This document shows, in pieces, positions 19,543 through 49,597 of a stretch of 64,000 bases of DNA. The position numbers and the translations under genes are program-made. Each line of letters starts with the position of its first letter. Position 1 is the stretch's first letter. The notes under the pieces were generated by a model, which saw only the letters and a program-made list of their open reading frames with translations, did no database searches and was not told the origin of the DNA. Location: assembly GCA_965552055.1 (NCBI GenBank), contig CBEVQO010000002.1:384001-448000 (forward strand). Direction: 5' to 3'. The stretch is from an uncultured bacterium (GTDB lineage Bacteria > Hydrothermota > UBA3073 > NMUJ01 > CBEVQO01).

Positions 19543-19672
19543 GCACAGCCCATTTGCGTTATAACATTTTTTTACGGGTATGCACTTTTAAAAGCGTTAT
19601 ATGGTTAAAAGTGGGGTTATGCGTGGGCTGTGCAAGGGGGAAGGTGGGGACTGGGAGGAGGGGCTAAAAATT
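19543..19672 (+). repeat. GC-rich intergenic element copy A (hairpin plus G-tract tail)
   Basis: gcacagccca (19543-52) pairs with tgggctgtgc (19624-33); tail ggggg aaggt gggg act ggg agga gggg ctaaaaatt. Confidence 0.8.
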
Positions 19673-20178
19673 ATAGGTATATCTCTGTTTATAATCCATA
19701 AATCCCATTTGTAAGGTAGGGGTTGATTTTCGCATAATAACTTAAATTCTTCATAGGTAAATCTGTCTTTTTTTCTTTCAAATCTTACTTTTTCGGGTGC
19801 GTCAACTACGATTATCATATCGAATAGCTCTTCGAGCCTCCATTTACCTATCAATGCACAATCCACAACCACAACAGGATAAACACTTTTTGCAATCTCT
19901 ATCTCCTTTATTAATTCACAAATCAAAACAGGATGAACTATTCGGTTTAATTTCTTCAACTTTTCTTCATCTCTCAAAACAATCTCTTTTAGCGCTGGAC
20001 ATTTATAAACTCCGAACTCTTTTAAAATTTTCGCTTTTACTTCGGGAAATTCCCTAACTTTCCAGCCAATTTCATCTGCACTTATTACCTTTGCACCCAT
20101 TTTTTTGAAATATTCACAGATAAAAGTTTTGCCTGCTCCTGTTTTGCCTGTCACAGCTATCAAAAATCCATTAGCCAT
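19597..20178 (-). CDS. coaE: Dephospho-CoA kinase
   Basis: IAVTGKTGAGKT, ISADEI, IVHP, VVVDCAL; last ~25 aa are encoded by repeat copy A. Confidence 0.85.
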   Translation of the reverse strand: MANGFLIAVTGKTGAGKTFICEYFKKMGAKVISADEIGWKVREFPEVKAKILKEFGVYKCPALKEIVLRDEEKLKKLNRIVHPVLICELIKEIEIAKSVYPVVVVDCALIGKWRLEELFDMIIVVDAPEKVRFERKKDRFTYEEFKLLCENQPLPYKWDLWIINRDIPIIFSPSSQSPPSPLHSPRITPLLTI

Positions 20179-21362
20179 TTTATCCTCTCTTTCGCATAGT
20201 TTAACTCATCCTCTTCTTTTATCTTCCCATCAATGCGCGCTGATAGAACATCGTCTAAAATTTGCTTAAAAAGAGGAGAAGGTTTTAAACCCATCTTTTT
20301 CAAATCTTCACCCGTTATCTTTAATCTAAAATCTTTCAATTCTTTTAAAAATTTCTCTATTTTCTGTGTCACATCTTTGAAATTTGCATAAATATAACAT
20401 AAATTTGGCATGGGCACATCTTTTAAACAAAAATATATTTCACTATTTGATTTTGCTCTTTTCAAATTTTCTGCTCTACTAATGTCTTCCTTTAATCTAT
20501 TTGCACATTTCTTCTCATAATATTTGGGCTCATACAAAACTGGCTTTTCTGGATTTAAGAGAAGCATATAGTAATAAAACCATTTATCTTCTTTTATCTT
20601 TGCAATCTCTATGAATTTATCTGCCATTTTAAAATTTTCTTCATCACATAATTTGAGAGAAAGTAAAGAGAGAATACCGTATTCTTCCAGTTTCTTTATC
20701 ATTTCGTATCTTTTTTCTTCTTCCAGTATTAATTTTATTTCGTTTCTTATTCTTTCGGGTGTCAATAATTTAATGTAAGACACTGCTTCTTTTAATAACT
20801 TTTCTGTTTTTTCTTCTATTTCGAAAGAAAACCTCATTGCAAATCTTACAGCTCTGAAAATCCTTGTTGGGTCATCAATAAAACTTTTATCGTGTAAAAT
20901 CCTTATCTTCTTTGCTTTTATATCATCAATTCCTTTAAATGGGTCTATTAATTTCTCTTCTTTAATATCGAGTGCTATTGCATTTATTGTGAAATCTCTT
21001 CGAAAAAGGTCATCTTCTATTTTGCCGAAAGATACTCGGGGTAGAACCGCTGGTGATGGATATTCTTCTTTCCTTGTCATTGCAAAGTCAATCCTGAAAT
21101 CTTCTATCTCAATGGTAGCGGTGCCGAATTGCGGATATCTTGTTATTTTGCCTTTTAAAATCTTGTTTAATTTTTGGGCAAATTCTATTGCATCTCCTTC
21201 AATGCAAATATCCAGATCTTTTTTCAGATTTTTACCCATAATTAGGTCGCGTACAGGTCCTCCCACAAGGAAAGCCCTTGTTTTTTCTTTTTCACACAAA
21301 TTTTTTATTTCATCAAGGATTTTTTTTATTTGCGGGTCAACGATGGTGATAATCTTTCCCAT
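20160..21362 (-). CDS. cca: tRNA nucleotidyltransferase (CCA/A-adding family)
   Basis: VGGPVRD..DLD, DDLFRRDFTINA, SFIDDPTRIFRAVRF, ERIRNE. Confidence 0.88.
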   Translation of the reverse strand: MGKIITIVDPQIKKILDEIKNLCEKEKTRAFLVGGPVRDLIMGKNLKKDLDICIEGDAIEFAQKLNKILKGKITRYPQFGTATIEIEDFRIDFAMTRKEEYPSPAVLPRVSFGKIEDDLFRRDFTINAIALDIKEEKLIDPFKGIDDIKAKKIRILHDKSFIDDPTRIFRAVRFAMRFSFEIEEKTEKLLKEAVSYIKLLTPERIRNEIKLILEEEKRYEMIKKLEEYGILSLLSLKLCDEENFKMADKFIEIAKIKEDKWFYYYMLLLNPEKPVLYEPKYYEKKCANRLKEDISRAENLKRAKSNSEIYFCLKDVPMPNLCYIYANFKDVTQKIEKFLKELKDFRLKITGEDLKKMGLKPSPLFKQILDDVLSARIDGKIKEEDELNYAKERIKWLMDF

Positions 21363-22213
21363 TCATAAACTATAGGTGCTACTATGAAAATTGACGAATA
21401 TGTTCCAACGATTACTCCAATTGTTAGTGTCAAAGCAAAATCGCGAATAACATATCCACCAAAGATTAAAAGAGTAATAAGCACAAAAAGGGTTGTGAGA
21501 GATGTAATAACCGTTCTGTTCAACACCTGATTTATACTCATATTTATTATATCAAATATCGGCTTTTTTCTTACAAATCTGAGATTTTCTCTAACTCTAT
21601 CGGATAATACGATTGAGTCATTTATTGAATAGCCAATGATTGTTAAGATTGCTGCCATTATCGCGGGTGTTATTTCTTTATTTAGTATTGATAGGAGACC
21701 TATTGTGATTATAACATCGTGCACTAATGCAAGTATTGATGCCACTCCGAATCTAAAATTAAATCTTATTGAAATATAAATTAGCATAACGATTATTCCG
21801 AAGAATACCATCCAGAATGCCCTTTTTCTTAACTCTGCTGAAATCATCGGACCTATTGTTTTTACCATCTCGATTTCCGGTTCTTTATCTTTCAATTCTT
21901 CCTGAATTAGTTCAGCTATTGGGGTTTCTTTTTTTCCTCTTATTAAAAATTTATTTTCTCCTGCTATTTCCTGTATTGATACATCGCGGTATCCTTTATC
22001 TGCGAAAATTTTCCTTATTTCTTCGATATTTACTTTCTTCCTGAATCCACAGGTTATTATTTTACCGCCTGTGAATTCCACACCGTATCTTAAGCCTTTA
22101 TGTGTGATTATTGATACAACTCCTGCTATTGCGAGTGCCAGTGATAAAAAGTAGCAGAATTTACGGATGCCAAGGAAATTTATATTGATACCTTCTGGAA
22201 AAATCCTCAACAT
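21326..22213 (-). CDS. secF: Protein translocase subunit SecF
   Basis: GVEFTGG, IGYSINDSIVLSDRVREN, RTVITSLTT, GTYSSIF. Start moved to ATG 22213 based on the promoter. Confidence 0.93.
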   Translation of the reverse strand: MLRIFPEGININFLGIRKFCYFLSLALAIAGVVSIITHKGLRYGVEFTGGKIITCGFRKKVNIEEIRKIFADKGYRDVSIQEIAGENKFLIRGKKETPIAELIQEELKDKEPEIEMVKTIGPMISAELRKRAFWMVFFGIIVMLIYISIRFNFRFGVASILALVHDVIITIGLLSILNKEITPAIMAAILTIIGYSINDSIVLSDRVRENLRFVRKKPIFDIINMSINQVLNRTVITSLTTLFVLITLLIFGGYVIRDFALTLTIGVIVGTYSSIFIVAPIVYEWERLSPSLTRK

Positions 22214-22220
22214 ATCAAAA

Positions 22221-22247
22221 AGAATAAACAAAATGTGAGTTTGTCAA
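22221..22247 (-). promoter_or_regulatory. promoter TTGACA-N15-TATTCT, apparently leaderless secF
   Basis: ATG 7 nt after -10. Confidence 0.65.
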
Positions 22248-22275
22248 GGATTTGTTTGAAATTTTTAAGTGAAAT

Positions 22276-22479
22276 TTATATTCCGTCTGTGGTCTCAGAA
22301 ACTTTGTACTCTTTTAAGGTCTTCTCATATACGATTTCTATTTTCTCTACATTAGTTGAATGTGGCTCAACATAAACTGGCATTTCTTTTTCCTCGAATT
22401 TTTCGTTTGGTGAATTATACATCATCTTTATCTGTCCGAAAGGCAAAATATTTATAGAAATTTTTATGTTTTCAGCCAC
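22276..22479 (-). CDS. Small hypothetical protein
   Basis: 67 aa; GTG start preceded by strong SD AAGGAGGTGA overlapping the end of the upstream gene. Confidence 0.55.
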   Translation of the reverse strand: MAENIKISINILPFGQIKMMYNSPNEKFEEKEMPVYVEPHSTNVEKIEIVYEKTLKEYKVSETTDGI

Positions 22480-22482
22480 AAC

Positions 22483-23511
22483 TCACCTCCTTTTATATTT
22501 CTTCAACCCATCGGGTGGCAGCTGCAATCCTATATTTATGTTTATTTGAGGATTTGGTGGTATGTTCCTCTTTTTCCTTAATTCAATGTTCGTTTTGAAT
22601 ACATGTAATTTTTTTGTACTTTCGATAATCGCTATAGGTAGGTCTTCTATCTGATGTTCGTCCTTATCTTTTAGAATAATTTCTGGATGAATGGGCTCTC
22701 GGAGTTTTAGAAATTCTTCATATTTTAAATACAATTCCCACATTAGATTTTCGAGTTCTTCATCGGAGTATTCCACAGGGAGTCCTATATCTTTTGCCTC
22801 TCGCCTACCGATAGCGTGTCCGTGAGAATAAATTTTTTCTGTCAATGTTTCTATAATTGTAGATATTTTTTCTTCATCAAGTTTCTCCTTCCTTGAAGTT
22901 AGAAGTTTCCGTGCTACAAGTCTAATGTGATGATGCTGTCTGTTTACACTCCCTAATGTTAAAGGACCTATCTGGTTGATTAAAGAGCCTAATATATTTG
23001 CCACGGCGTCTTGATCATTGATATTTGCTCGTTCTTTTACAAATGATAAAAATGAGTTAACATCTTCAACTGCAATTTCCTGAGGTGGCACTGCAGTTTC
23101 ACCTATTGTGGCTTTAACCAGTGTAGGATCAATAGGTCCTAATTCTGCTTTCTTTCCCATTATAATATTATCTGCACCCATGGATAGTAAAGTAGCGGCA
23201 CTTTGAGCTCTATATGGTATCAACACATTAAACTCGTCACAAAATTCTCTTATCATACTGACAATTCTCCATGGCACGCTTACATCTCCACCTCTACTAT
23301 ACAAAAAGAGGTCTATGTGTTTTTTATCTTCAGTGAATTCTAAACTTAGCAAATGGTCGTATAACGGTCTTACAGCATCTTCCGCAATGCGCGCACCTAA
23401 TGGATGTCTATCTCCTGTGAAATACACTATAACTTTACTTTGCCTTTTTTGCTCTATTTTTTCTATCAAGCCTTTACGGATAGATTTATTTAAATCTTCT
23501 TCTATTCCCAT
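22483..23511 (-). CDS. SDH-family Clp-fold serine protease, possibly 3'-truncated
   Basis: DLFLYSRGG, AQSAATLL, LGPIDP, HGHAI. Start moved to ATG 23511 based on the promoter. Confidence 0.8.
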   Translation of the reverse strand: MGIEEDLNKSIRKGLIEKIEQKRQSKVIVYFTGDRHPLGARIAEDAVRPLYDHLLSLEFTEDKKHIDLFLYSRGGDVSVPWRIVSMIREFCDEFNVLIPYRAQSAATLLSMGADNIIMGKKAELGPIDPTLVKATIGETAVPPQEIAVEDVNSFLSFVKERANINDQDAVANILGSLINQIGPLTLGSVNRQHHHIRLVARKLLTSRKEKLDEEKISTIIETLTEKIYSHGHAIGRREAKDIGLPVEYSDEELENLMWELYLKYEEFLKLREPIHPEIILKDKDEHQIEDLPIAIIESTKKLHVFKTNIELRKKRNIPPNPQININIGLQLPPDGLKKYKRR

Positions 23512-23518
23512 CTTTATT

Positions 23519-23545
23519 AATTTAATCAAAAACACTTTTTGTCAA
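23519..23545 (-). promoter_or_regulatory. promoter TTGACA-N15-TAAATT, apparently leaderless (ATG 23511)
   Basis: Read from sequence. Confidence 0.7.
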
Positions 23546-23573
23546 CTCATTTTAGTCAAAAATTTACATAAAT

Positions 23574-23682
23574 TAATGCGAGCGTAAGCGAGCCTGTTAC
23601 ATATGGGTTGTGAGCCAACACCCCGACTGAAAGGAGGGGTGTGCACGAGGGCGGTGGGGACTGGGAGGCGGGGCTAAAAATT
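23574..23682 (+). repeat. GC-rich intergenic element copy B
   Basis: taatgcgagcgtaagcgagc; ttacatatgggttg; acacccc/ggggtgt stem; ggg cggt gggg act ggg aggc gggg ctaaaaatt. Confidence 0.8.
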
Positions 23683-24197
23683 TAATAACTTAAATAAAGG
23701 GTTATTCCTGTTCCTTTCAATACTTCTGAATTTTCGGGTGGCGATGTCCTTACTACATGGTTTGAAGGCAGGTCGCTTTCTACATATTTTATCCTTTCAA
23801 TTCTGAAACCTTTATCGAGTAGAAGCTCTATTGCTTTCGCAGCAGGCAATCCCCTTACAAATGGTATAACAACTTTCTCATATCCTGCACTTACTATCAA
23901 ATGCACTTCTCTTCCTTTTTTTACTCTCTTTGTTGGCAAAGGTTTTTGTGATATTACATAACCTTTTGGTACCGTTGGGTCATATCTTGTGGTATCGACC
24001 ACTGGCACGAGTCCTGCACTTTTCAGTATTTCTCGTGCAATATCAAGTGGCTTGCCACACACCTCCGGCACTTCCACCACAGCATGTGCGCGTGTTAGCC
24101 AAGGCATCACAATGTAATTTGCAATTATTAGACCTACAAAAAATGTCCCTGTAAATATCAATGCAACTGCACCAAGTAATTTCAAGAAGTTACGCAT
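23682..24197 (-). CDS. Membrane-anchored PASTA-domain protein
   Basis: One TM, two PASTA repeats (VPEVCG...VISQKP; IPFVRG...VVRTSP). Start at ATG 24197. Confidence 0.88.
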   Translation of the reverse strand: MRNFLKLLGAVALIFTGTFFVGLIIANYIVMPWLTRAHAVVEVPEVCGKPLDIAREILKSAGLVPVVDTTRYDPTVPKGYVISQKPLPTKRVKKGREVHLIVSAGYEKVVIPFVRGLPAAKAIELLLDKGFRIERIKYVESDLPSNHVVRTSPPENSEVLKGTGITLYLSY

Positions 24198-24855
24198 TTT
24201 GCAATACACAAACAAAATGCCCAAGATATCCCTTAAAAATTTTTAAAAAACACCAGCCAGTATCATCGCAGATTGTTCTAACATCATCGGGTGATAACAA
24301 AAATAAATTAAACCAGTCACCTATTAATCCCTTATATTCTGCACGCAAATGTAAAATGCCATCTTTTGCCTCGGGAAAGTGCGACGGCTCTGTTGAAGAA
24401 CCTATCAGAAAGCCTCCCTTTTTTGTTATCCTCTTTATCTCTTTAAAAAGCAATAAAGTATTTTTGTAATCACCGCAGATTCCAAAGCCATTTCCCAGCA
24501 ATAAAACTGTATCGAACATATTTTCTTTAAAGGGCAAAAACGGAGCTCTGCCACACACGATTTTAACACCTCTATTTTTTACAATCCTGCAAATCGTATT
24601 ATTCATATCAAATGCTATTACTTTTATTTTTTTCCTCAAAAGATAAACAGAATGCCTGCCTGCACCACAGCCAATATCGAGCGTCAAACCCTTTGCATAT
24701 TTCAATGCTTTAATTTCCTCGGAAAGAACACCATCATAATATAATGCAATTATTTCTCTGTCAACAATTCCGCTTTTTCTTCTTACAACAAATTCTACAT
24801 CCTCACCATTTATAAAATCACAAATCGCCTGCGCGAATAACTCGTAACTATCCAT
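24190..24855 (-). CDS. Class I SAM-dependent methyltransferase
   Basis: LDIGCGAGRH, FDTVLLLGNGFG. Confidence 0.88.
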   Translation of the reverse strand: MDSYELFAQAICDFINGEDVEFVVRRKSGIVDREIIALYYDGVLSEEIKALKYAKGLTLDIGCGAGRHSVYLLRKKIKVIAFDMNNTICRIVKNRGVKIVCGRAPFLPFKENMFDTVLLLGNGFGICGDYKNTLLLFKEIKRITKKGGFLIGSSTEPSHFPEAKDGILHLRAEYKGLIGDWFNLFLLSPDDVRTICDDTGWCFLKIFKGYLGHFVCVLQNA

Positions 24856-25916
24856 TAAAACGGAGTAAAATCAATATCTTTACTTAATCTTTCTATAAAT
24901 TTTGCGAGTAATTTTGCAATATTTTCAAGGTCTGACAATTCGAGCACCTCCACAGGTGTGTGAATGTATCTGCAAGGTATTGACACCAGACCCGCTGCTA
25001 CTCCTGCTCTCGTAAGCTGTATAACATTTGCATCGGTGGGAGTCCCTCTTTCTATTCCTTCAACCTGATATGGTATTTTCTCTTCTTCTGCTGTTTTAAT
25101 CAGCAGCTCAAAAACTTTCGGATTTATATTTGGTCCCCTTGCGATTACTGGACCCTTTCCGAGTTTTATCTCGCCTATTTCCTTTGCATCAACGGTGGGA
25201 TAATCTGTAGCAATAGTTACATCAATTGCAATACCTACATCTGGCTGTATACCGTAGGCACTCGTTTTCGCACCCCTTAGCCCTATTTCTTCCTGAACAG
25301 TGGCAACCCCATAAACTCCTGCTTCTATTTTTTTGCCTTTTAATAATTTTAAAACTTCGCTAACAACAAATGCACCTGCTTTGTCATCAAAACCCCTTCC
25401 CATTACTCTCTTCTCATTCAGTTTCTCGAATTTAACTGCTGGTACAGCAGGGTCGCCAATGGATACAAGTTCTTCTGCTTCCTTTTTAGACGCTACTCCT
25501 ATATCAATCCACATATCCTTAAATTTCACAACCTTTTCTCTTTCTTCTGCTTCCATTACATGGATGGGCTTTTTACCGACAGCTCCTATTACTATTCCTT
25601 TTTTACCTTTTATCATCAATCTTTCACCGGGCACAAGATGGCGGTCAACACCTCCTATTGGCTTAAAGTAGAGAAAGCCTTTATCATCTATGTATTTTAT
25701 CATAAAACCGATTTCATCGATATGTCCTGCAAGCATCACTCTTGGTCTGCCTTCTTTATTCAGTACAGCTATCGTATTACCGTGAACATCCGTGCGTATT
25801 TCGTCGCAGTAAGCATTTGTACGCTCTTTCCATATCTTTACTGCGTCTCCTTCAAAGCCCGATGGACTCATAGCATCACATAACTTCTGTAAGAATTCTA
25901 AACTCTCCCTATCCAT
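24855..25916 (-). CDS. M42 family metallo-aminopeptidase
   Basis: PSGFE, GHIDEIG, FDDKAG, QEEIGLRGA, DVT, RYIHTP. Start at ATG 25916 after SD AGGGGG. Confidence 0.92.
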   Translation of the reverse strand: MDRESLEFLQKLCDAMSPSGFEGDAVKIWKERTNAYCDEIRTDVHGNTIAVLNKEGRPRVMLAGHIDEIGFMIKYIDDKGFLYFKPIGGVDRHLVPGERLMIKGKKGIVIGAVGKKPIHVMEAEEREKVVKFKDMWIDIGVASKKEAEELVSIGDPAVPAVKFEKLNEKRVMGRGFDDKAGAFVVSEVLKLLKGKKIEAGVYGVATVQEEIGLRGAKTSAYGIQPDVGIAIDVTIATDYPTVDAKEIGEIKLGKGPVIARGPNINPKVFELLIKTAEEEKIPYQVEGIERGTPTDANVIQLTRAGVAAGLVSIPCRYIHTPVEVLELSDLENIAKLLAKFIERLSKDIDFTPF

Positions 25917-25924
25917 TGCACCCC

Positions 25925-28756
25925 CTATCTTTGAGACCTGCAAATATTCTTATAAGGACAACCACGACACCTATATTCATCTTCACAATCCGCTGGATAT
26001 TCACCAGAAAATATTAATCTCATATAATTTTGTAACTTATCTTTCGCTTCTTCTATCTGAGAATCCAATACAAAGCCATCAGAAAGTAATTTCAACTTTA
26101 TTCCATCATCATGTATAAAATAAAAACCAAAATTCAACTTTTTACCGGGATATGCTTTTGATAACAGATAAAGATAAACATCGGGTTGCGTCATCTCCTT
26201 CCATATCCTTCCTCCTGCTCTCGGTGAAGAATGCTTGTAATCAATAATCTGGATACCCCGTCCATAAATACCATCAACTTCATCAATTCTATCAACTTTA
26301 CCTTTTAACTTTATCTTCCTTCCATCGAATTCAAATTTTTCTTCAAACCATTTTTCTGTTGCTATCACTTTAAAAGGAAATCTATACCGACGACGCTTCT
26401 CTTCTATTAAAAATTGAATCAGCAAGGGTAAAATTCTTTCAACCTGACTGCTCAAAAGATATTTATCGGCGATTATTCTGTCTCTCACGGCTTCTTCTAT
26501 TTTTTTATCAATCACTTTTTTCAATTCATCCTCATCAAAATCTTCTCCTATCATATCTCTGCATTCATTCAACACTTCATGTATTATGCTTCCTCTATCG
26601 ATTAATCTCATCGATGGCTCTGCTATTAACGGCTCTTTTATTTTCATAAGCTTTCTCATGTAAAATTTAAATTTGCACTGTACCAGATTATCAAAATCCG
26701 ATGCCGATAACTCTTCGATCTTTATCATATCTAATGGAATCCTGGCAACATTTTCTCTATTTGCTCTTTTTATTATCTCACTTACATTTTGAAATTCAAA
26801 TATTTTCCCATATTCTCCATGCAAATAACATAAATTTTTCTCGACATCGTCTTTACAAAATGCTTTATCAATTGAAGGCACATAAGCGAACTGCATATAA
26901 TCATCTTCTTCTTTATCTTCACGCAATCTCAAAACAGCCTCAATAAAACCAGATGGTAATAAAGGTCTACCTTCGCTATCCACAGAACTATAAGTTAAAA
27001 AAACTTTCTCCCTTGCAGTTAAAAGTGCAAAATAAAAAAGTAAAGGCTCTTCCTGATGTCTCCTCTTTGATGTGCTGAATACATTCCTCTTAAAAATTCT
27101 GTTAATTTCTTCTTTAACTTCATCTGCAAGATATGGGCTTTCATAATGTTTCTCCGGGAAAACTCCGTCGTTCAATCCTATACAGAATACAACTTTGAAT
27201 CTTAATCCAACAGCATCGTAAACATTTAAAACCTTAACACCATCAAATTTGTGCCAGTCAGAAGGCAAACTTATATCCTTTAAAGCATAGCTTAATGTAT
27301 CAACAAAATCCTGCAATTCAAAATCATAATTAAAAAGCCTGTAAGATAACAAAATTCTTTCGAATACATTCATAATGTTTTCAACAGCGATAGCATCTTT
27401 TCCTTCGAAAACTTTATATTTATCCACAATTTCATAAAACTTTTTTCTAAATTTATTCACGGAATTTGTTTTTAATTCTTTCACATCATCTATGAACTTT
27501 TTGATAAATTTTGCACAATTTTTTTCTTCACGCCTGTTTATATCTGCTTCCAAATCTGTATCTGCTTTTTTTCTTCGTCTACGCATTATCTCTGATTTTT
27601 CACAATATTCCTCATAACACTCCCAAAAAGTTCTGTGAGAATCACGAATATAACCCGTTTGCAGTAAAAGTGTCTCTATAAAGAAGTTAGAAGGCTTATT
27701 TTTCAAGAAGTCCGAGCTTAAAATCTTACGCAAAGCATCGCGCTCAAAATCCTTATCAGGAAGTGATAAAAGTTCTATCAAAAATTTAGTCAAAGGCAAA
27801 ACTATAAGTGGTAAACTTCTCCTGAAAGAAAAAGGTATCCCCCATTTTTTAAATTCCCTGTCAATAACAGGACCATAAAGCGTCATATTACGGACAATAA
27901 CAGCGATGTCATCAACATTATAGCCTTCATCGATCAACTCAAGTATTTTCCTTGCGACAAATTCCACCTCTCTAAAAATTCCTTCGCATTTTATTATTTT
28001 TACGGATTTCTCTCCTTTATACGGCTTAAAACCTTCTTCTTTCAATCTATCGGGTGTTTTGAAAATGTAGGCAAAAATATGCTTTAACTCTTCTGGATAA
28101 TCTTCTTCTGGCATTTCAAACAAAGGATTTGGGTCTATTGCTGTGAATCTTTCTCCGAGTTTCTCAAAGCTGCGGATGACCGGCTGGACAAAACGGAAAG
28201 CATCTTCACGCCATGGGTCATAAGGAACACGCACAAATAACCTGCCACCACGCTTTGCAAGCAGTTCACCGAGTTTGAAAATGAATTGCAACTGCATATA
28301 AGTGGGATTATAAAAACCTTCAAAAATTATCTCATCAAGGTCAGGAGGAAATAAATCTTCGAGATTTTCATAAATTATCCTCTCTTTATCAATATGGTCA
28401 ATGAAGCCCAATTTTCCTTTCAATCTTTCATATCGTTCATAAACATCTGCTATCAACTTAAGATGTCCCCCTATTTTCTTTGCTACTTCTTTCAGCTCGT
28501 ATGGCGTTATCATCGCCTGCTTTAATTCTCTTATGAATTCTATCATCTGATGGGCTCCAAATTCTTTCCCCATCTTTTTTCTTATTTCTTTAACAAGCAT
28601 GTATTCCATAAAATCATGAATAACTGGCTTTTTTTCTTTTAATTTTCTATAAAGAAATTCTATAAATTCTTGAAATGTAACTATCTGCCAGCCGTTTGCA
28701 TTTCCTATTTTTCGCAATTCATATTCTTTCCTTATTGTATTTGGCACTATTTTCAT
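25925..28756 (-). CDS. AddB/RexB-like helicase-fold protein with C-terminal PD-(D/E)xK nuclease
   Basis: REVEFVARKI, GLRFKVVFCIGL, LKGKVDRID...IIDYK, Cys cluster (QCKF; CRGCPYKNIC). Start at ATG 28756 overlapping the osmC-like stop. Confidence 0.8.
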   Translation of the reverse strand: MKIVPNTIRKEYELRKIGNANGWQIVTFQEFIEFLYRKLKEKKPVIHDFMEYMLVKEIRKKMGKEFGAHQMIEFIRELKQAMITPYELKEVAKKIGGHLKLIADVYERYERLKGKLGFIDHIDKERIIYENLEDLFPPDLDEIIFEGFYNPTYMQLQFIFKLGELLAKRGGRLFVRVPYDPWREDAFRFVQPVIRSFEKLGERFTAIDPNPLFEMPEEDYPEELKHIFAYIFKTPDRLKEEGFKPYKGEKSVKIIKCEGIFREVEFVARKILELIDEGYNVDDIAVIVRNMTLYGPVIDREFKKWGIPFSFRRSLPLIVLPLTKFLIELLSLPDKDFERDALRKILSSDFLKNKPSNFFIETLLLQTGYIRDSHRTFWECYEEYCEKSEIMRRRRKKADTDLEADINRREEKNCAKFIKKFIDDVKELKTNSVNKFRKKFYEIVDKYKVFEGKDAIAVENIMNVFERILLSYRLFNYDFELQDFVDTLSYALKDISLPSDWHKFDGVKVLNVYDAVGLRFKVVFCIGLNDGVFPEKHYESPYLADEVKEEINRIFKRNVFSTSKRRHQEEPLLFYFALLTAREKVFLTYSSVDSEGRPLLPSGFIEAVLRLREDKEEDDYMQFAYVPSIDKAFCKDDVEKNLCYLHGEYGKIFEFQNVSEIIKRANRENVARIPLDMIKIEELSASDFDNLVQCKFKFYMRKLMKIKEPLIAEPSMRLIDRGSIIHEVLNECRDMIGEDFDEDELKKVIDKKIEEAVRDRIIADKYLLSSQVERILPLLIQFLIEEKRRRYRFPFKVIATEKWFEEKFEFDGRKIKLKGKVDRIDEVDGIYGRGIQIIDYKHSSPRAGGRIWKEMTQPDVYLYLLSKAYPGKKLNFGFYFIHDDGIKLKLLSDGFVLDSQIEEAKDKLQNYMRLIFSGEYPADCEDEYRCRGCPYKNICRSQR

Positions 28757-29163: not shown

Positions 29164-29180
29164 AATCCCTCCATACTTCT

Positions 29181-30601: not shown

Positions 30602-30607
30602 AATATT

Positions 30608-39549: not shown

Positions 39550-39567
39550 CTTGCCCCCCTATCAATA

Positions 39568-39594: not shown

Positions 39595-39596
39595 GC

Positions 39597-40787: not shown

Positions 40788-40788
40788 C

Positions 40789-42077: not shown

Positions 42078-43504
42078 CAATATTTGAAACTACTACCGCC
42101 TATGAATTCTCTGAGGATAGAAGTGGGTGGCACATCTGTTGTTTCTATAGGTAAAAAGTGTGATAGGAAATCTTTGAGTAACTGTGCTTCTTCGTATTCT
42201 TTCATATCCTCCGGTATTTCATCGAGTAAAGGAATAACAAATCTTTTAAGAACTGCAATCTCATAAAGTAAAGCGCTGTTAAAAATTTCGTCGGCATTCT
42301 CCTGATGCGGAAAGATATATTTCTCCTCTGCTTCCCTCACCGTACTCCACATTCTCAATGTATCACCTGCTCTGTGTCCTCTGTAAAAATAATCTCTTAC
42401 TATTCTGCGTAAGAGTCGTGCATGGGATGTTGAAATCCTGTTGTGGTCATCAAGATTTAAAGGTGTTAAAGCACTTACATAAATTTTAAAAGCACATCTT
42501 TCTAATTCTTCGCAAAAGATGGGATTTAAAGCATGTATCCCTTCGATTATAAGAATGCCATCTTTTGGCAGATAAAAAGGTTTATTTCTCCATTCCCTTT
42601 TTCTTGTTGTAAAATTGAATTTTGGCAAAATTACTTCTTTGCCTTTTAATATTTCTTTTATTTGTTTTTTGAAAAGCGGGATATCAATGGCTTCTGGAGC
42701 ATCGGTATCGAGTGTGCCATCGGGTTTTCTCGGACATTGCTCTGATGGCAAAAAATAGTCATCCATAGAAATTATAAAAACTTTCCTTTGATTCACCATC
42801 AATTGAATTCTTAATCTTTTTGAAAAAGTTGTTTTACCTGAACTTGAAGGTCCTGCCACCAGAATCACCCTTTTTCCTGTTTCAACGATTTTATCTGCGA
42901 GATTTGCTATCTTTTTCTCATGCAAAGCCTCTTCTATTTTTATGCAATCCGATATCTCACCTTCAACTATTTTTTCATTAAGGTCGCCAACATTTCTTAT
43001 ACCGAGTATTTCTGCCCAGTGTTCAGCTTCTTCGAATGCTTCAAAAAATTTCCTTTGCTCTTTAAACTTCTCTTCGAATAAAAGCAAAAATCCAGGGGGA
43101 TAATATTTTAACATGTAAAAGCCAATCTTTGAGAAATCGCGGAATGGCGGGAAGAAAAGATAATCATAAACATCGTCTATACCATAAATTCTTATTTTTT
43201 CCCGTTGATTATATTTTAAAAGTTTTACAACATCATTCCTTCCTTCATTTTCAAAAAATTTAATGGCTTTATCTTTTTCTAAAATTTTGCTTGAAATTTT
43301 TTTATTCTGGCACAATATTTCTTCGTATTTTTTGCACAATTTTTTGAAATTATCTTCTTTAAGCTTGAAATTTTTGATTTCGCAATAAACTCCTGTTGAA
43401 TACGAGTGTCTTATTATCAATCTTGCTTCAGGTGATAATTTTTTCAGTATGTAATATAAGAGGAGTAAAAGTGTTTTTTCTTTTTTTCTTTTATAAACTT
43501 CCAT
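42077..43504 (-). CDS. Nucleoside (uridine) kinase-family protein with ThrRS-like N-terminal domain
   Basis: AGPSSSGKTT, ISMDDYF, IEGIHALN, RLLRRIVRD, SILREFIGGS. Confidence 0.88.
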   Translation of the reverse strand: MEVYKRKKEKTLLLLLYYILKKLSPEARLIIRHSYSTGVYCEIKNFKLKEDNFKKLCKKYEEILCQNKKISSKILEKDKAIKFFENEGRNDVVKLLKYNQREKIRIYGIDDVYDYLFFPPFRDFSKIGFYMLKYYPPGFLLLFEEKFKEQRKFFEAFEEAEHWAEILGIRNVGDLNEKIVEGEISDCIKIEEALHEKKIANLADKIVETGKRVILVAGPSSSGKTTFSKRLRIQLMVNQRKVFIISMDDYFLPSEQCPRKPDGTLDTDAPEAIDIPLFKKQIKEILKGKEVILPKFNFTTRKREWRNKPFYLPKDGILIIEGIHALNPIFCEELERCAFKIYVSALTPLNLDDHNRISTSHARLLRRIVRDYFYRGHRAGDTLRMWSTVREAEEKYIFPHQENADEIFNSALLYEIAVLKRFVIPLLDEIPEDMKEYEEAQLLKDFLSHFLPIETTDVPPTSILREFIGGSSFKY

Positions 43505-43509
43505 CTTTT

Positions 43510-43536
43510 ATTGTAATCTTTATTTTAATTTGTCAA
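43510..43536 (-). promoter_or_regulatory. promoter TTGACA-N15-TACAAT, apparently leaderless (ATG 43504)
   Basis: ATG 5 nt after -10. Confidence 0.75.
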
Positions 43537-43540
43537 TGTT

Positions 43541-43709
43541 TAATTGCGAGCGTAGCGAGCATATTACATATGGGTTGATATGTCAGCCCATTACGGGTTT
43601 TTCGTTATAGCAGGGGTTTCTGGCTTTATCTGCTGTCTGCGTATTTCAGCTGGAGTAGTGGGCTGACTTAATCGGGAAGGTGGGGACAGCGGAGGAGGGG
43701 CTAAAAATT
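43541..43709 (+). repeat. GC-rich intergenic element copy C
   Basis: gcgagcgtagcgagc; ttacatatgggttg; gtcagcccatta/tagtgggctgac stem; gggaaggtggggacagcggaggaggggctaaaaatt. Confidence 0.8.
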
Positions 43710-43711
43710 AC

Positions 43712-43738
43712 TTGACATATAAGAGAACCGATTAAACT
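43712..43738 (+). promoter_or_regulatory. promoter TTGACA-N15-TAAACT, apparently leaderless (ATG 43744)
   Basis: ATG 5 nt after -10. Confidence 0.75.
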
Positions 43739-43743
43739 TAAAG

Positions 43744-46700
43744 ATGTTTTTGGCACTCCTTATATCGATTTTTCCAGAGATGAAAGATTTGATGCTCAAA
43801 CAAAAGGAATTTCTTCCAAAAATCTATCAAAATTATTATAACTTATTGCGGAAAAATCCCGAGCTGAGAGAAATTTTGAGAAAAATACCCAAAAATAGAT
43901 TGAAATTTGCCCGTAACTTAAGCAAAAAATTAAAGCAAGATGAAGCCGAAACCTTACATATTATTGCCATTCGTGTCGAATTTTTAAAAGATACTTTTTC
44001 GTTGACTTTTGGAAACGGATTGATGTGTGATACACCGAAATATTCGATGTATACAGGTGATGGATATCACAACATTTTGTATTATGACCCGCCTCATGAT
44101 TCCATTTATTTCCATTATTTGATGGTTGCTTTACGCAATTATTATCAGGATATCAGTTATGGCAAAATTTATATAACATGGGATATTGCACCAAAGGGGC
44201 TCGATACTGCATATCAATTACCTCATGAGATGGCTTATTATGGTGATACTTCAAATTATGCCCTTGGTCTTTTTATGCTGGTTCGTGATGCTATACTTGC
44301 ATGTGATGCTGACCACAATTTTCAGGTAGGCAAATATGATGGACATCTAATTTTTCACGCTGGATGCTCATGGCAGGCACAGGCAGCTTTTGGACTTACA
44401 CCCTACGATATTTTAACAGCTTATATACCATATTCTGAATATTTCCCGCCGATAATTACAAAAGAAGGAGACACCGTTTATGACGCTATAATTCTTCCGG
44501 AATCCAACTGGTATTATGTTGCTTTTGGAATGCAGGGAAGTATGTTTCATGAGTTCGCCCATCTACTTGGCGCCGTTGACCTTTATGATATCTCTTATAT
44601 GACGATTGGCGTGGGTGCATGGGACTTGATGGGTACGGGTGCCTGGAATATGCTGGGACATGTGCCCTGCAGGCTGTGTGCATTCCACCTTGAATATCTC
44701 GGTATAGTGAAGCCCAAAGTTATAACCAGAGATACTGTAATATGGGTGAAAAGATTATCACTCGCTCCTGACATTTATAAAATACCTGTAAATGAGAAAG
44801 AATATTTCCTGATAGAAAATAGATGTGCTTATATGCCGGAAAGTCTCGAAAGTACAAATCCAGATTCAAATGCTTTTAGAGTATGGAAATATGGAGTACT
44901 TGTAGATGTTAATGACTGGGATGTTTCTTTGCCGTGCAGTATTAATACATCGGGTATTGCTGTATGGCATATTGATACGCAAAAAGTTGCCATTTATGAT
45001 GATTCAAATACGGTAAATGTTGGCAGTCCCAAGGGAGTTGATATGGAAGAGGCAGATGGTGTTCAGGATTTTGAACTCCCATGGTATGAGATATCTGACT
45101 GGGATGCTGCACTTGAAGGTACACAATGGGATTTATTCTACAAGGGAAACGCAGATAGTTTTTCTTATTACACAAATCCCAGTTCTGCTTCAAATGATGG
45201 CGCTAATTCTTTTGTAAAAATGAAATTCGGAGAGATGGGCGATTCTATAAAAGTTGAAATAAAATTTGAATTTGTAAAATCGGGCTTCCCTGTTTCAAAT
45301 CTCGGTAAAGTTGATATAAACTCTCCTGTTCCTTTTGACTATGACGGCGATAATTTAGATGAAATTTTACTGATAGCAAATAAAGACAGTATCGGAATAC
45401 TTTATCTTTTTGATTACAAAAGTGGTTTAAAAATTGATACATTGTTAAAAAATTTCCCTGTTTCTTTTTCACAAATTGCAATAGGTGATATTGATGGCGA
45501 CAATCATGAAGAAATTGTATGGGGAAGTACAAAAGGTTTATGTGTTTATGACAGAGAAAAAGACACCCTTTATCTTTTTGGGATAAAAGAAGGGGTTTAT
45601 TCTGTTCCTACGATTTACGAAGGATTTGTAATTTTCGGTGCAGATGATAACAAATTGCATTGCGTATATCTTGAAAATGATAGTTTAAAAGAAAAGAAAG
45701 GTTTTCCAGTGGAAATAGGACACATGATAAGGGGTTCTGCGTGTTGTATCGGTGATTCTATTTTTGTCCTTTCGGGTGATGGAAGATTATATTGTGTATC
45801 TTTATCCGGTAAAATCTTATTTAGAGTTCTCAAAGAAAATTTGATGTTTACCGGTTTCAGTCCCGTTGCCGTTGATATAAATGGTGATGGCGAAAAGGAA
45901 ATAATTTGCGTAACCGGTACAGGTGATGTTTACGCAGTCAAATTAAACGGCGAAATTCTATGGCACAGACAGATTCCGGAAAATACTTATGAATATGCAT
46001 GGCTATCCACATCTCATCCTGTAATTGCGGACATTGATGGCGATTCTTTACCTGATATTATTTTTACTGCTGGCAAAAAATTGTATGTTTTAAATCACAA
46101 TGGTGCTTATCTAAATAATTTCCCGATTGAAGCAGATACCGGCTGGATTATTTCGACACCCATAATTTATGATATTGATGGAGATGGTGAAGTTGAGATT
46201 TCTTTTGGTCTTTCAAAAGGAAAATTTACATCATACGATGCTAATGGCAAATTGCAGATGTTTTTCCCTGTAGAAACCGGCACTCCCTGTTATTCTTCTC
46301 CCTGTATCTGCGACTGGGACGGCAATAAAAAAGCTGATATTTTCTTTGTCTCGGACACAGGTAAAATGTGGTGCATAGAATTTAATGGCAGTTACAAAAA
46401 AACAAAATGGTTCACAATTTGCAAGAATTTATCACGAAATCCTGTAATCGAATGGAATTATCCGCAAAAAGAATTTGTATTTACAAAAGAAAATTTTTAT
46501 ATTTATCCAAATCCATCAAAAGACGGAAAAATATTTTTGAGATTAACATCGCCTTCGAACGGCAAAGTAGAAATCATGATTTTAACCATCTCTGGTGATA
46601 TAAAAGCGAAATATGAAAAAGAAGTTTTAAAAGGAATAAATGATATTCCCCTATCCCTTAATCTGCCCGATGGCTTTTACATTGCACGAGTTAAAGTGCC

Positions 46701-46752
46701 TGATGGCAAATGTGGTTTTGCCAAATTTGTAATCGCCCGTAAATGGAAATAA
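43744..46752 (+). CDS. M6 (immune inhibitor A-like) metalloprotease with FG-GAP/beta-propeller repeats and T9SS-type CTD
   Basis: HEFAHLLGAVDLY zinc motif, WDLMGTGAWN, EYFLIENR, DIDGDG repeats, IYPNP CTD. Confidence 0.85.
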   Translation: MFLALLISIFPEMKDLMLKQKEFLPKIYQNYYNLLRKNPELREILRKIPKNRLKFARNLSKKLKQDEAETLHIIAIRVEFLKDTFSLTFGNGLMCDTPKYSMYTGDGYHNILYYDPPHDSIYFHYLMVALRNYYQDISYGKIYITWDIAPKGLDTAYQLPHEMAYYGDTSNYALGLFMLVRDAILACDADHNFQVGKYDGHLIFHAGCSWQAQAAFGLTPYDILTAYIPYSEYFPPIITKEGDTVYDAIILPESNWYYVAFGMQGSMFHEFAHLLGAVDLYDISYMTIGVGAWDLMGTGAWNMLGHVPCRLCAFHLEYLGIVKPKVITRDTVIWVKRLSLAPDIYKIPVNEKEYFLIENRCAYMPESLESTNPDSNAFRVWKYGVLVDVNDWDVSLPCSINTSGIAVWHIDTQKVAIYDDSNTVNVGSPKGVDMEEADGVQDFELPWYEISDWDAALEGTQWDLFYKGNADSFSYYTNPSSASNDGANSFVKMKFGEMGDSIKVEIKFEFVKSGFPVSNLGKVDINSPVPFDYDGDNLDEILLIANKDSIGILYLFDYKSGLKIDTLLKNFPVSFSQIAIGDIDGDNHEEIVWGSTKGLCVYDREKDTLYLFGIKEGVYSVPTIYEGFVIFGADDNKLHCVYLENDSLKEKKGFPVEIGHMIRGSACCIGDSIFVLSGDGRLYCVSLSGKILFRVLKENLMFTGFSPVAVDINGDGEKEIICVTGTGDVYAVKLNGEILWHRQIPENTYEYAWLSTSHPVIADIDGDSLPDIIFTAGKKLYVLNHNGAYLNNFPIEADTGWIISTPIIYDIDGDGEVEISFGLSKGKFTSYDANGKLQMFFPVETGTPCYSSPCICDWDGNKKADIFFVSDTGKMWCIEFNGSYKKTKWFTICKNLSRNPVIEWNYPQKEFVFTKENFYIYPNPSKDGKIFLRLTSPSNGKVEIMILTISGDIKAKYEKEVLKGINDIPLSLNLPDGFYIARVKVPDGKCGFAKFVIARKWK

Positions 46753-47600
46753 TACCCGTTGCTTTCGATAGTCTGGGAACAAGGAGTATGTGCACATTTA
46801 TAAAATCAGATGATATAAACATTTTAATTGACCCTGCGGTTGCTCTTGGACCAAGAAGATATGGCTTGCCACCACATAAAAAGGAACTCGAAAGAAAAGA
46901 GGAACACTGGAAAAAAATAAAAGAATATGCAAAAAAAGCAGATTTGATAATAATAACACATTATCATTATGACCATCACAATCCAAATTATCCCGAACTT
47001 TTTAAAGACAAAATTTTATTTATAAAGCATCCTGAGAAAAACATAAACCGCAGTCAATATGTGCGTGCAAAGCGCTTTCTGGAGCGAATTGAGGGATATC
47101 CAAAGGAGATAAGAATTGCAGAAGGTGTGGAAGAAAAATTTGGAAAATTAAGGTTAAAAATATCACAAAGTGTATGGCATGGTAACGATAAAAGATTGGG
47201 TTTTGTAGTGGAAATTTTTATCGAAGAAGATAAAAGATTTTTGTTCACATCGGATGTTGAAGGACCTGTTACAGATGAACAAACTTTATTTATTCTTGAG
47301 AACGACCCCGATATTATTTTTTCGGATGGTCCCATGACCTATCAGCCACAGGTTTATGATGAAGAAACTTTAAAGAAGGCAATTGAAAATATAAAAAAGA
47401 TAATCGAAAAGACAGGAGTAAAAAAATATATTCTTGACCATCATCTTGTAAGAGACCTTGAATTTTCTCGTAAGATAAAAGAGATTTTTGAAGTAGCAGA
47501 GCAAAATGGCTGTGAGATTATGACGGCTGCGAAATTCGGTGGCTTTGAAGAAGATTTCCTTGAAGCACACAGAAAAGATTTGTGGAAAGGAGAAAAATAA
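46743..47600 (+). CDS. Metallo-beta-lactamase-fold hydrolase (UPF0282-like)
   Basis: AFDSLGTRSMCT, IDPAVALGP, THYHYDHH, SDVEGP, LDHHLVRD. Confidence 0.85.
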   Translation: MEIIPVAFDSLGTRSMCTFIKSDDINILIDPAVALGPRRYGLPPHKKELERKEEHWKKIKEYAKKADLIIITHYHYDHHNPNYPELFKDKILFIKHPEKNINRSQYVRAKRFLERIEGYPKEIRIAEGVEEKFGKLRLKISQSVWHGNDKRLGFVVEIFIEEDKRFLFTSDVEGPVTDEQTLFILENDPDIIFSDGPMTYQPQVYDEETLKKAIENIKKIIEKTGVKKYILDHHLVRDLEFSRKIKEIFEVAEQNGCEIMTAAKFGGFEEDFLEAHRKDLWKGEK

Positions 47601-47601
47601 C

Positions 47602-47628
47602 TTGACTTTACAGTTCTTTAATTAAAAT
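47602..47628 (+). promoter_or_regulatory. promoter TTGACT-N15-TAAAAT, apparently leaderless (ATG 47634)
   Basis: Second ATG lies 5 nt after -10. Confidence 0.7.
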
Positions 47629-47630
47629 AA

Positions 47631-48044
47631 ATGATGAAAAGAGATTTACCTTTGACTCCACAAGAAGCAATTGAAAGGTCAGAAGAATATTATAACAACG
47701 CCAAAGAAATTTTAAAAGATGTGGAAATAAAATTTGGGATTTACACTGATGGCAAAAAGGTAAGGGAAGCATGTGCAATGGGTTATCTGTCTGCATTGAC
47801 CGCAATAGACGCATATCTGCTGAAAAGAGGTAAAAAGCCAGAAGAATTGCCAACATCTTTTGCGGAATACAGAGAGGTGGTATCAAAAATGCCTTACAAT
47901 GGAAAGCTAACAGCATCTTTAACCGCAGTTTACCAGAACCTTCATGTGCTCGGATATTACAGAGGCGGTATAGAAGTAGAGATGATTAAATCTGGCTTCA
48001 AACATGCAAAGAGAATAATCGATACAATTAAGAAACTGGTATGA
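47631..48044 (+). CDS. HEPN-like helical protein (DUF5618-like), copy 1
   Basis: YYNNAKEIL, ACAMGYLSALTAIDAYL, LHVLGYY pattern; true start may be 47634. Confidence 0.7.
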   Translation: MMKRDLPLTPQEAIERSEEYYNNAKEILKDVEIKFGIYTDGKKVREACAMGYLSALTAIDAYLLKRGKKPEELPTSFAEYREVVSKMPYNGKLTASLTAVYQNLHVLGYYRGGIEVEMIKSGFKHAKRIIDTIKKLV

Positions 48045-48454
48045 TGAAGAGGGATTTGCCCTTAAATCCTAAAGAAGCGATTGAAAGGTCTGAAGAATAT
48101 TACAATAATGCGAAAGAAATTTTAAAAGATGTTGAGATAAAATTTGGTCTTTATACCGATGGCAAAAAGGTAAGGGAGGCATGTGCAATGGGCTATCTGT
48201 CTGCATTGACCGCAATAGACGCATATCTGCTGAAAAGAGGAAAAAAGCCAGAGGAATTGCCAACATCTTTCGCGGAATACAGAGAGGTGGTATCAAAAAT
48301 GCCTTACAATGGAAAGCTAACAGCATCTTTAACCGCAGTTTATCAAAATCTTCATGTTTTTGGATATTACAGGGGTGGAATAGAAGTAGAGATGATTAAA
48401 TCTGGCTTCAAACATGCAAAAAGAATAATCGATACGATTAAGAAACTGGTGTAA
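48041..48454 (+). CDS. HEPN-like helical protein (DUF5618-like), copy 2
   Basis: 133/137 aa identical to copy 1; 410-nt tandem period. Confidence 0.7.
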   Translation: MMKRDLPLNPKEAIERSEEYYNNAKEILKDVEIKFGLYTDGKKVREACAMGYLSALTAIDAYLLKRGKKPEELPTSFAEYREVVSKMPYNGKLTASLTAVYQNLHVFGYYRGGIEVEMIKSGFKHAKRIIDTIKKLV

Positions 48455-49455
48455 TGGAAAGAATACTGCTTGTTAGGACGCATGCGATCGGAGATGTATT
48501 GCTGACAACACCGGCTGTAAAAGCTGCGAGAAAAATTTATCCAGATGCAAAAATAGATTACTTAACAACAAAATGGTCAAAAGAAGCAATAACTTTAAAT
48601 CCTAATATAGACGAAATAATAGCAGTGGATGACGATGTTTTTTTCTCAAAAAATCCTACAAAAATCATCAAATTGGTAAAAGAATTGAAAAAAAGAAATT
48701 ATGATAGAATTTATGCATTTCACAGATCAAAGAAAATCCATCTTTTATGCAAGTTAATAGGCAATAAAGTAACAGGAATATCTGATGGCGATTTTAATCC
48801 TTTTCTCGATGAAAAAATAGTTTTAAAAAGGGAAAACAGCAATTATGTGGCAGATGATTATCTAAAAATGTTTAACATTGAAATTGAAAATTCTTCTCTC
48901 GAATTTTACTGGAGCAAGGAAGATGAAATTTTTATTGATAATTTAATTGGTGATTTAAGGTTTGTCTGTGTAGCACCTGGTGGTGCACATAATCCTGCGG
49001 AAAGCGTCTGGCAAAAATTGTGGAAGATTGAGAATTTTATAAAAGTAATTAAATATTTGAAAAACAGGAAGGAAAAAGTTATAATAGTGGGTGGCAAGAG
49101 CGATGAAAAAATTTGTAAGGAAATCGAAGAAAAATGCGAAATTTTAAATCTGTGCGGTAAATTAACTTTAAAGCATCTCGGAGTTTTGTTGAAAAGGAGT
49201 AAATTTTTATTAACAAATGATAGTGCACCCCTTCATATTGCTGTTGCGGTAAATACTCCTGTTATCGGGCTTTTTGGACCCACATCCCCTGATGTGCTTT
49301 TACCCAAAAGAGAAAACATTATAGCAATAAGGAGCGATGCCGAATGTAGCCCCTGTTATGTTAACCGCAGATTTAAAGGATGTAAAAAGCCAATTTGTAT
49401 GGATATGATAACCACTGATAAAGTAATCTCCGTAATTGAGAAGAAATTCTATTAA
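48454..49455 (+). CDS. GT9 LPS heptosyltransferase-like glycosyltransferase
   Basis: AIGDVLLTTP, NDSAPLHIAVA, GLFGPT, CSPC...CM. Confidence 0.9.
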   Translation: MERILLVRTHAIGDVLLTTPAVKAARKIYPDAKIDYLTTKWSKEAITLNPNIDEIIAVDDDVFFSKNPTKIIKLVKELKKRNYDRIYAFHRSKKIHLLCKLIGNKVTGISDGDFNPFLDEKIVLKRENSNYVADDYLKMFNIEIENSSLEFYWSKEDEIFIDNLIGDLRFVCVAPGGAHNPAESVWQKLWKIENFIKVIKYLKNRKEKVIIVGGKSDEKICKEIEEKCEILNLCGKLTLKHLGVLLKRSKFLLTNDSAPLHIAVAVNTPVIGLFGPTSPDVLLPKRENIIAIRSDAECSPCYVNRRFKGCKKPICMDMITTDKVISVIEKKFY

Positions 49456-49461
49456 AATTTT

Positions 49462-49597
49462 TAATGCGAGCGAAAGCGAGTAAGGCACTGCCTTGACCAC
49501 GCTGTGGCTTTATAAACACCCTTCCCGTAATGAATCACAAGTACCTTGAGAGGGGTGTGCACGAGGGCGGTGGGGACAGGGAGGTGGGCAAAAAATA
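49462..49597 (+). repeat. GC-rich intergenic element copy D
   Basis: taatgcgagcgaaagcgag; acaccc/gggtgt stem; ggg cggt gggg aca ggg aggt ggg caaaaaat. Confidence 0.8.

Follow-up and report, generated by a model that had tools for sequence, protein, structure and literature searches.

A polar, composite intergenic repeat of 70 copies in a vent bacterium, with accessory DNA shared on its head side

The stretch of DNA analyzed here, hereafter the window, comprises 64,000 nucleotides of an uncultured bacterium of the Hydrothermota (contig CBEVQO010000002.1, positions 384,001 to 448,000) and holds four intergenic stretches which are members of a 70-copy non-coding repeat, composed of a conserved head, a variable middle and a G-rich tail. 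Copy A (19536..19672, + strand) is headless, its left arm repeating its own 3' stem and end in inverted form, and it carries a degenerate middle module and a G-rich tail (19638-19672). Copy B (23572..23682, +), of the 110-112-nt class, contains a head mini-hairpin (23573-23614), a short middle hairpin (23618-23642) and a tail (23646-23682), and copy C (43540..43709, +), of the 168-176-nt class, has its head at 43540-43580 and its tail, in which the third G-run is broken, at 43672-43709. Copy D (49460..49598, +) is a unique 139-nt form with a head at 49460-49490, an inverted middle module of the long classes and a tail at 49562-49596. A -35 box stands directly past the tails of C and D, that of D being the -35 box of rph. 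An earlier, sequence-only reading of the window had proposed four copies at these places, G-rich on the + strand, with heads in B, C and D, a spacer in B and C, these two -35 boxes, a motif of four runs of three G in A, B and D which C lacks, and a stem in each copy, all of which was confirmed (stems: A 19543-19552/19624-19633; B 23618-23624/23636-23642; C 43579-43594/43655-43670; D 49516-49524/49550-49558).

On the head side, A adjoins a cargo on the - strand (17491..19499) made up of an AAA_15/AAA_21 ATPase (17979-19499) and a 163-aa gene without Pfam match, which may form a defence pair and varies between strains, and B adjoins an SDH/ClpP-like protease (22483..23535, -). On the tail side, the genes are the following: beside A, what is presumably a dephospho-CoA kinase-like protein, named from a motif alone (19597..20178, -), whose reading frame enters the copy by about 75 nt; beside B, a PASTA-domain protein whose stop codon touches the tail (23682..24224, -); beside D, RNase PH (49631..50344, +; TIGR01966); and beside C, an FG-GAP/secretion-tail protein (43744..46752, +) which has no strong NCBIfam match and is an exception to the housekeeping trend of this side. 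Opposite-strand genes run 63-75 nt into the element both in the window (19597-19672) and elsewhere in the genome (contig C8, 32978-33041), and their last residues are therefore coded by the element.

The profiles of the head and the tail were built from the copies of the genome assembly under study (G000; 97% complete, 15 contigs) and applied at E<=0.01 with the reversed genome as a control. The search returned 70 tails, with none in the reversed genome, and 83 heads, with one in the reversed genome, which is far above chance, and both ends are present in 69 of the 70 copies, copy A being the one without a head. Between these ends lie zero to four optional middle modules, which gives total lengths of 75-477 bp distributed in discrete classes: 75-85 nt (nine copies), 110-112 (15), 139 (copy D only), 168-176 (24), 194-206 (five), 257-280 (three), 328-337 (nine) and 426-477 (three). 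In the long copies, a middle unit is iterated within the loop of the central stem. The interiors had been described as unrelated, which did not hold, given that the interior type of C is common to 24 copies, that of B to 15, and that of D is an inverted copy of a module found in the 194-426-nt copies. A suspected fifth copy at 4989-5040 was likewise lost, with no head or tail match even at E<=20 and a best BLAST E-value of 0.6. The co-orientation of the copies holds within the window and not genome-wide, where contig C2, whose GC skew is negative in nearly every bin, carries 13 copies on the + strand and eight on the -, and no clear strand bias by replichore is seen in the genome. Neighbouring copies do lie on one strand in 39 of 60 pairs (p=0.027).

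The two ends of the element lie inside A/T tracts which are unlike each other, and there are no terminal inverted repeats, the sole terminal match being one of 9 nt in copy A. No target duplication of 4-9 bp rises above the shuffled control, and a 2-bp TA duplication is compatible with the consensus, from which it is indistinguishable without an empty site. In the copies listed, the hairpin foot consists of a T-run and then AAT, ATT or ATC, with no GTAG or CGTC tag. Given this, the part of the sequence-only reading that foresaw a REP/MITE-like repeat or recombination site (REP, repetitive extragenic palindromic; MITE, miniature inverted-repeat transposable element) fits as a multi-copy, lineage-restricted, REP-like repeat with gene conversion and with exchange of heads together with their cargo, and is not supported as a classical MITE.

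The head is a hairpin whose structure could be parsed in 64 of the 69 heads. Its outer pair is G-C in 47, A-T in 16 and G-T in one, its inner stem is GC/GC in 45, GGC/GCC in 18 and GGGC/GCCC in one, GA faces GA between the two, and the loop is a GNA triloop in 36, a GNRA loop in 26 and a GNYA loop in two, so that a GCG-N(N)-AGC mini-hairpin is kept by compensatory changes, as is characteristic of REP hairpins and of bacterial interspersed mosaic elements (BIME). A stem of this kind gains stability from tandem G-A pairs on just one of the two strands. The core of the head equals the GCGN(N)AGC DNA mini-hairpin, of which GCGNAGC and GCGNNAGC are reported to be very stable as DNA and far weaker as RNA, and which occurs at single-strand priming sites (PMC13037366, consulted in part). 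The folding energy is lower on the G-rich strand in 67 of 69 copies when modelled as DNA and in 69 of 69 when modelled as RNA, and the two models therefore do not tell DNA from RNA; the head of B is not folded by ViennaRNA, because this program has no sheared G-A pairs.

These results bear on a further suggestion of the earlier reading, that of a structured non-coding RNA family, which is weakly supported and, in our judgement, highly improbable. The better RNA folding of the G-rich strand in every copy and the GNRA loops speak for it; this folding would be predicted from wobble pairs alone, and the GNA triloops of more than half of the parsed heads are a DNA motif. In addition, both adjoining genes point away from the element at 24 of 69 sites, around C the one match resembling a promoter is no better than chance, and Rfam returned no match at the gathering cut-off in the window and three matches with chance-level E-values over seven loci.

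In the tail, a canonical G-quadruplex (G4) motif of four runs of at least three G is predicted in 45 of 70 copies and in none of the 24 tails of the C type, which makes the putative G4 an optional part of the element, even though 46 of the 67 such motifs of the genome lie within these elements. The non-G positions of the tail are also invariant, and its first G-run remains GGG in two shifted haplotypes.

Beyond this genome, the element appears, as far as sequence scans reach, to be confined to a single lineage of vent bacteria. The tail pattern, matched 66 times in the assembly, did not occur in the 271 other phylum genomes scanned, copy C as a DNA query found nothing in 30 relatives, and the head patterns were absent from 21 genomes of the class and from viral contigs. 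Species genome contigs gave five isolated tail matches, none with a head, and viral contigs gave one, also headless, while two other viral scans yielded 41 loci, none of which matched the element over at least 28 nt (four by the head profile only, none by the tail); plasmids and phages gave no match. In metagenomes, 35 tail loci were found, 22 of which are conspecific (94-100% like the assembly) and 13 of which have neither a head nor a genome match. Sequencing runs labelled hydrothermal vent metagenome contain long, close pieces of the window.

The accessory genes that had been noted beside A and B proved to extend to a rule for the head side of the whole genome. When a strong NCBIfam match (E<=1e-25, first 330 aa) was taken as a proxy for housekeeping genes, such matches were found in 18 of 69 neighbours on the head side and in 43 of 70 on the tail side, with discordant head/tail pairs at 31:6 in favour of the tail (p=4e-5), 26:6 after the removal of nine shared-flank copies and 18:4 with robust gene calls only. 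Against a matched random background with 32 strong matches in 80 genes (19/45 promoter-first and 13/35 unit-last), the tail side is enriched (p=0.014; gene ends 21/29 vs 13/35, p=0.006) and promoter-first genes are depleted on the head side (10/47 vs 19/45, p=0.043). Pfam searches on 30 head-side genes without a strong NCBIfam match returned two DNA methylases, MvaI-type and type III restriction proteins and an AAA_14 ATPase, and gave no match for 19 of the 30. The polarity of the neighbours is thus observed directly; what we infer of its cause is set out below. No account of such head/tail polarity was found in full-text searches of a literature that includes few subscription papers.

The tail is also placed at preferred distances from the neighbouring gene. 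Where a -35 box follows, its distance from the G-run is 9-11 or 21-23 nt in 26 of 34 cases (p=2e-5), and an opposite-strand stop codon lies at -8, inside the end of the element, in 12 of 29. Promoters free of the element likewise have an A-tract, which precedes the -35 box by about 8-10 nt, for which reason the A/T-rich ends of the element may be partly target. Of 458 such promoters genome-wide, 196 have TTGAC at 32-34 nt ahead of the start codon, which suggests mostly leaderless mRNAs. The phasing of the tails to the -35 boxes by one helical turn, together with their enrichment at the ends of housekeeping genes, the concentration of genomic G4 motifs in the elements and the persistence of the first GGG in the shifted haplotypes, would be expected of a transcription insulator kept by the host, whose tail, as G4 on one strand and C-rich RNA on the other, would end housekeeping transcripts or shield and phase promoters. 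We regard this function as very unlikely: no C-type tail has the canonical motif, non-G positions are invariant as well, none of the 271 relatives has the element, tails are not enriched between convergent genes, and tandem sites show no strand preference (23:16).

A second asymmetry is seen in the flanking DNA itself. When shared flanks were defined as at least 60 nt of at least 75% identity beginning within 260 nt of the element, 22 pairs among 21 copies were found at heads and none at tails; reading of the alignments showed that 14 of these 21 copies share promoter or gene DNA and seven share element fragments only, and partial, decayed copies do sit just upstream of heads. The non-element DNA in common falls in at least five separate groups, one shared 153-nt block runs as far as the start codons of two distinct genes, and paralogous cargo adjoins copies of differing interior classes.

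Part of this shared DNA is of integron type. The head side of one copy on contig C9 carries an IntI-like gene (TIGR02249, E 3e-66, 224 bits, below the cut-off of 265), the catalytic part of which is apparently internally deleted, together with an attI-like site, an AccI restriction cassette and an attC site. The integrase promoter and first codons recur beside three other heads, and attI-like sites beside two, so that all three attI-like sites lie at most 1.3 kb from a head, in a zone making up 4% of the genome, and both attC-like matches are also on the head side. The element is not itself an attC site, a class defined by the boxes RYYYAAC/GTTRRRY: the box test passed one site in the genome scan (C9:32280) and none of the 70 copies. 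In the chromosomal integron (C9:28430-33500; locus L083:3931-9001), the IntI-like gene has an N-terminal HARP-like stretch and runs in the same direction as the cassettes, and the attI-like site, the AccI restriction-modification pair, attC and a further gene are present. Satellites without integrase, formed by the promoter and an attI-like site, lie at C7:29417-32661 and C3:13240-13380.

Comparison with conspecific metagenomic loci shows what has changed between strains. Locus L055 differs from the assembly at eight positions, which are confined to columns 1-34 of the head, the remainder of the element being identical, and upstream of it lie 1.5 kb of integrase-promoter, attI-like and M23 peptidase DNA. 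L052 has had its upstream gene replaced at the head, and at L075 the element is flanked by a gene on each side, within 1.18 kb that is absent from the assembly. The interior of L053 differs at 21 columns and its ends are identical, from which the one identical pair in the assembly looks like gene conversion. In the window itself, with the stretches uncovered in runs X3, X5 and X7 excluded, the cargo of A is present in run X1, and a contig of X2 departs at 17478, on the far edge of this cargo, followed by 2655 unlike letters; at the far edge of the cargo of B, contigs of X1 and X2 depart at 22512, followed by 377 and 279 unlike letters, respectively. The tail-side genes are covered by close contigs. 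Among the joints listed, none skips exactly A, B, C or D, and no new-site insertion carrying donor flank was seen in the conspecific loci. One exchange of a head plus its cargo and one interior conversion have therefore been observed between strains, which is thin support at this level.

The search for an enzyme that could have moved the element was negative for 14 families in the assembly (Y1_Tnp, RAYT NF047646, IS91 NF033538, Y2_Tnp, Zn_Tnp_IS91, Rep_trans, Rep_1, RVT_1, TnpB, DUF559, DDE_Tnp_1, DDE_3, mutator and IS1380), with Y2_Tnp, Zn_Tnp_IS91 and Rep_1 matching no control genome either. RAYT genes were absent by PF01797, by NF047646 and by a profile of the proteins of four relatives, and IS91 by NF033538, with no remnant, PF04986 and PF14319 being negative without a positive control. 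Relatives of the class do have RAYT-like matches (18 of 21, up to 15 per genome) and IS91 (three of 21), and the flanks of nine of their RAYT or IS91 loci bear no likeness to the element. The RAYT-like genes at L177, L179, L180 and L181 (genomes G004, G020, G016 and G009) are flanked by short repeats of their own, unlike the element. The recombination genes present in the assembly are two Xer-like recombinases, the IntI-like gene and one IS110-type gene, and ComEC is also found. The IS110-type gene, the only transposase found, was rejected as the source, as its flanks and ends are unrelated to the element; it encodes an intact-looking recombinase of 342 aa (L090:865-1893, contig C6) with a non-coding stretch downstream, and fragments of this type lie at C1:171684, C1:358245 and C5:37460, the third of which immediately precedes a head. 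Other candidates were also set aside: a sole GIY-YIG match within a frame of 581 aa, some 3 kb away from the closest copy, six proteins from a scan for HUH motifs, none convincing, two weak RAYT-like tblastn matches inside unrelated genes, and a likeness to dif/KOPS judged by eye against the consensus.

The same evidence bears on the possibility of a miniature rolling-circle element of the IS91/ISCR type, in which the tail would be the origin end at an A/T-tract target and the head a leaky terminator, with read-through carrying head-side DNA. This would account for the two unlike ends without duplication, the flank sharing solely beyond the head, the tight spacing of the tail to stop codons and -35 boxes and the decayed partial copies just upstream of heads, IS91 genes do occur in three class relatives, and there is a precedent in one-ended IS91 transposition (PMC13181058, PMC3189936, each consulted in part). 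We nevertheless consider it unlikely, given that the assembly has no IS91-type gene or remnant, that the flanks of IS91 and RAYT genes in relatives are not similar to the element, that paralogous cargo stands beside differing interior classes, and that the clearest case between strains alters the head of a standing copy and makes no new one.

The reading that we prefer, to which we assign about an even chance, is that of an old, non-autonomous, single-strand-type element similar to BOX and REP, which now serves as a one-sided recombination anchor. The element would have spread as a non-autonomous mobile element through an HUH-type enzyme since lost or unassembled, with its G-rich strand folding as single-stranded DNA in the cell. 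Its tail tends to abut housekeeping genes, and crossovers between copies would exchange the head together with the upstream promoter and accessory genes. Present swaps would proceed through host homologous recombination at the element and a microhomology joint on the far side, on DNA probably taken up by transformation, and the folded tail, as G4 or bound by protein, may confer the one-sidedness.

Several observations weigh against this anchor. No enzyme is found in the assembly for any of the 14 families, and no clean empty site was seen among the 22 conspecific loci. The flanks break between strains at four of 16 heads and one of 15 tails (L075 excluded), which is not significant (p=0.33), and the contigs of X1 and X2 do not bridge the new DNA to copies A or B. 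The NCBIfam match is only a proxy for housekeeping, and the covariation tallies of the head count copies, not independent events. An initial background was biased, its genes lying near the elements; its rate of 19 in 70 equalled that of the heads, and the matched random background was therefore drawn, against which all head-side genes together reach only p=0.08; as head depletion is weak, part of the polarity is tail enrichment, which is unexplained by cargo gain alone. Finally, accessory genes (aspartyl proteases, HepT) occur at tails too, and the attI-like sites may descend from one ancestor.

Some of these points would suit an ordinary dormant repeat of the BOX/REP type with no role in capture, its polarity arising from target choice and survival and its shared head DNA from a few founder events. 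The orientation classes of the adjoining genes match the genome background (39/24/6 vs 384/169/28, p=0.14), of the two halves of the polarity tail enrichment is the stronger, the median nearest-copy identity is 0.916 and the asymmetry between strains is not significant. This account is in our view also unlikely, slightly more so than rolling-circle transposition, because heads have at least five groups with non-element DNA in common and tails have none, promoter-first genes are depleted at heads, and variation on the head side is seen in each of L055, L052, A and B.

A more far-reaching version of the one-sided anchor, which we hold to be doubtful, is that of a dispersed gene-capture platform free of any enzyme. 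The mini-hairpin head and the G4 tail would make incoming single-stranded DNA recombine one way, about 70 sites would take promoter-plus-gene cargo on one side only, the promoter-attI platform of the integron would have been spread in this manner, and the tail would shield the housekeeping genes. Small intergenic repeats, such as BOX, REP and ERIC (enterobacterial repetitive intergenic consensus), are usually viewed as parasites or RNA punctuation; what is new here is a repeat family with a measurable direction relative to core and accessory DNA, with portable promoters and integron attachment sites on one of its sides. Should the mechanism hold true, repeats scattered over a genome can act as landing pads that give gene gain a direction, an idea applicable to any repeat family with many sequenced strains.

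In its behaviour, the element works like BOX or the REP/BIME composite repeats and is a member of neither. We know of no sequence likeness between BOX and the element, and the two are compared by description. Like the boxA-(boxB)n-boxC repeats of Streptococcus pneumoniae, it is a dispersed intergenic composite with fixed ends and a variable number of middle modules, in which unit motifs recur over lengths of 75-477 nt, and BOX is also lineage-restricted, apparently dormant and able to lengthen reading frames; unlike the element, BOX has terminal repeats likened to those of the insertion sequence ISSpn2 and is enriched between convergent genes, and the consulted part of the source reports no one-sided link to accessory genes, which the element has (PMC3049150). 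No ends resembling a resident insertion sequence were found in the assembly. The element shares with REP, BIME and REPIN (REP doublets forming hairpins) the GC-rich, single-strand, intergenic hairpins, the mosaic of amplified modules and the lack of target duplication, and CGTC-type REPs are likewise without a known enzyme (PMC3333891, PMC3733652, in part). It differs from them in having neither the GTAG/CGTC foot tag nor inverted REP pairs, with no RAYT in the assembly, and in having a G-run tail and polarity.

Other systems resemble the element in single traits. IS91/ISCR and the miniature IS801 have two unlike ends, no duplication and one-sided flank sharing (PMC13181058, PMC3189936, excerpts); the element differs in lacking a transposase and the CTTG/GTTC end tetranucleotide, and in the swap inside a standing copy. 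Integron attC sites, including clusters of attC sites lacking integron-integrases (CALIN), are also one-strand DNA hairpins tied to accessory genes, and the assembly itself carries an IntI-like gene and real attC sites, whereas the element lacks the attC boxes, is not arrayed and is located upstream of the integrase promoter, not downstream of cassettes. In TnGBS/ISLre2, one end is placed at set distances upstream of -35 boxes (PMC3942029, in part), with a single spacing of 15-17 bp in place of two peaks, and the element has no inverted or direct repeats and no mutator-type transposase. The GGGNATC repeats of Xanthomonas and Nostoc are similarly capable of forming G4, intergenic and near gene starts or stops; as described in the portion of PMC4692102 consulted, they are simple heptamer arrays, whereas the element is a composite in which the predicted canonical G4 is optional.

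Two further features were observed in the neighbourhood of the copies. Several heads, among them those at C6+6052, C2+79634, C3+106289, C9-28190 and C10-26323, and some promoters have upstream of them a 21-bp A/T-rich tandem repeat with about five units. Small aspartyl-protease-like genes form a family of 13 members, of which three in the assembly (C7:28932, C2:136853 and C9:52523) and one at a strain locus (L075:4037-4420) adjoin elements, on either side.

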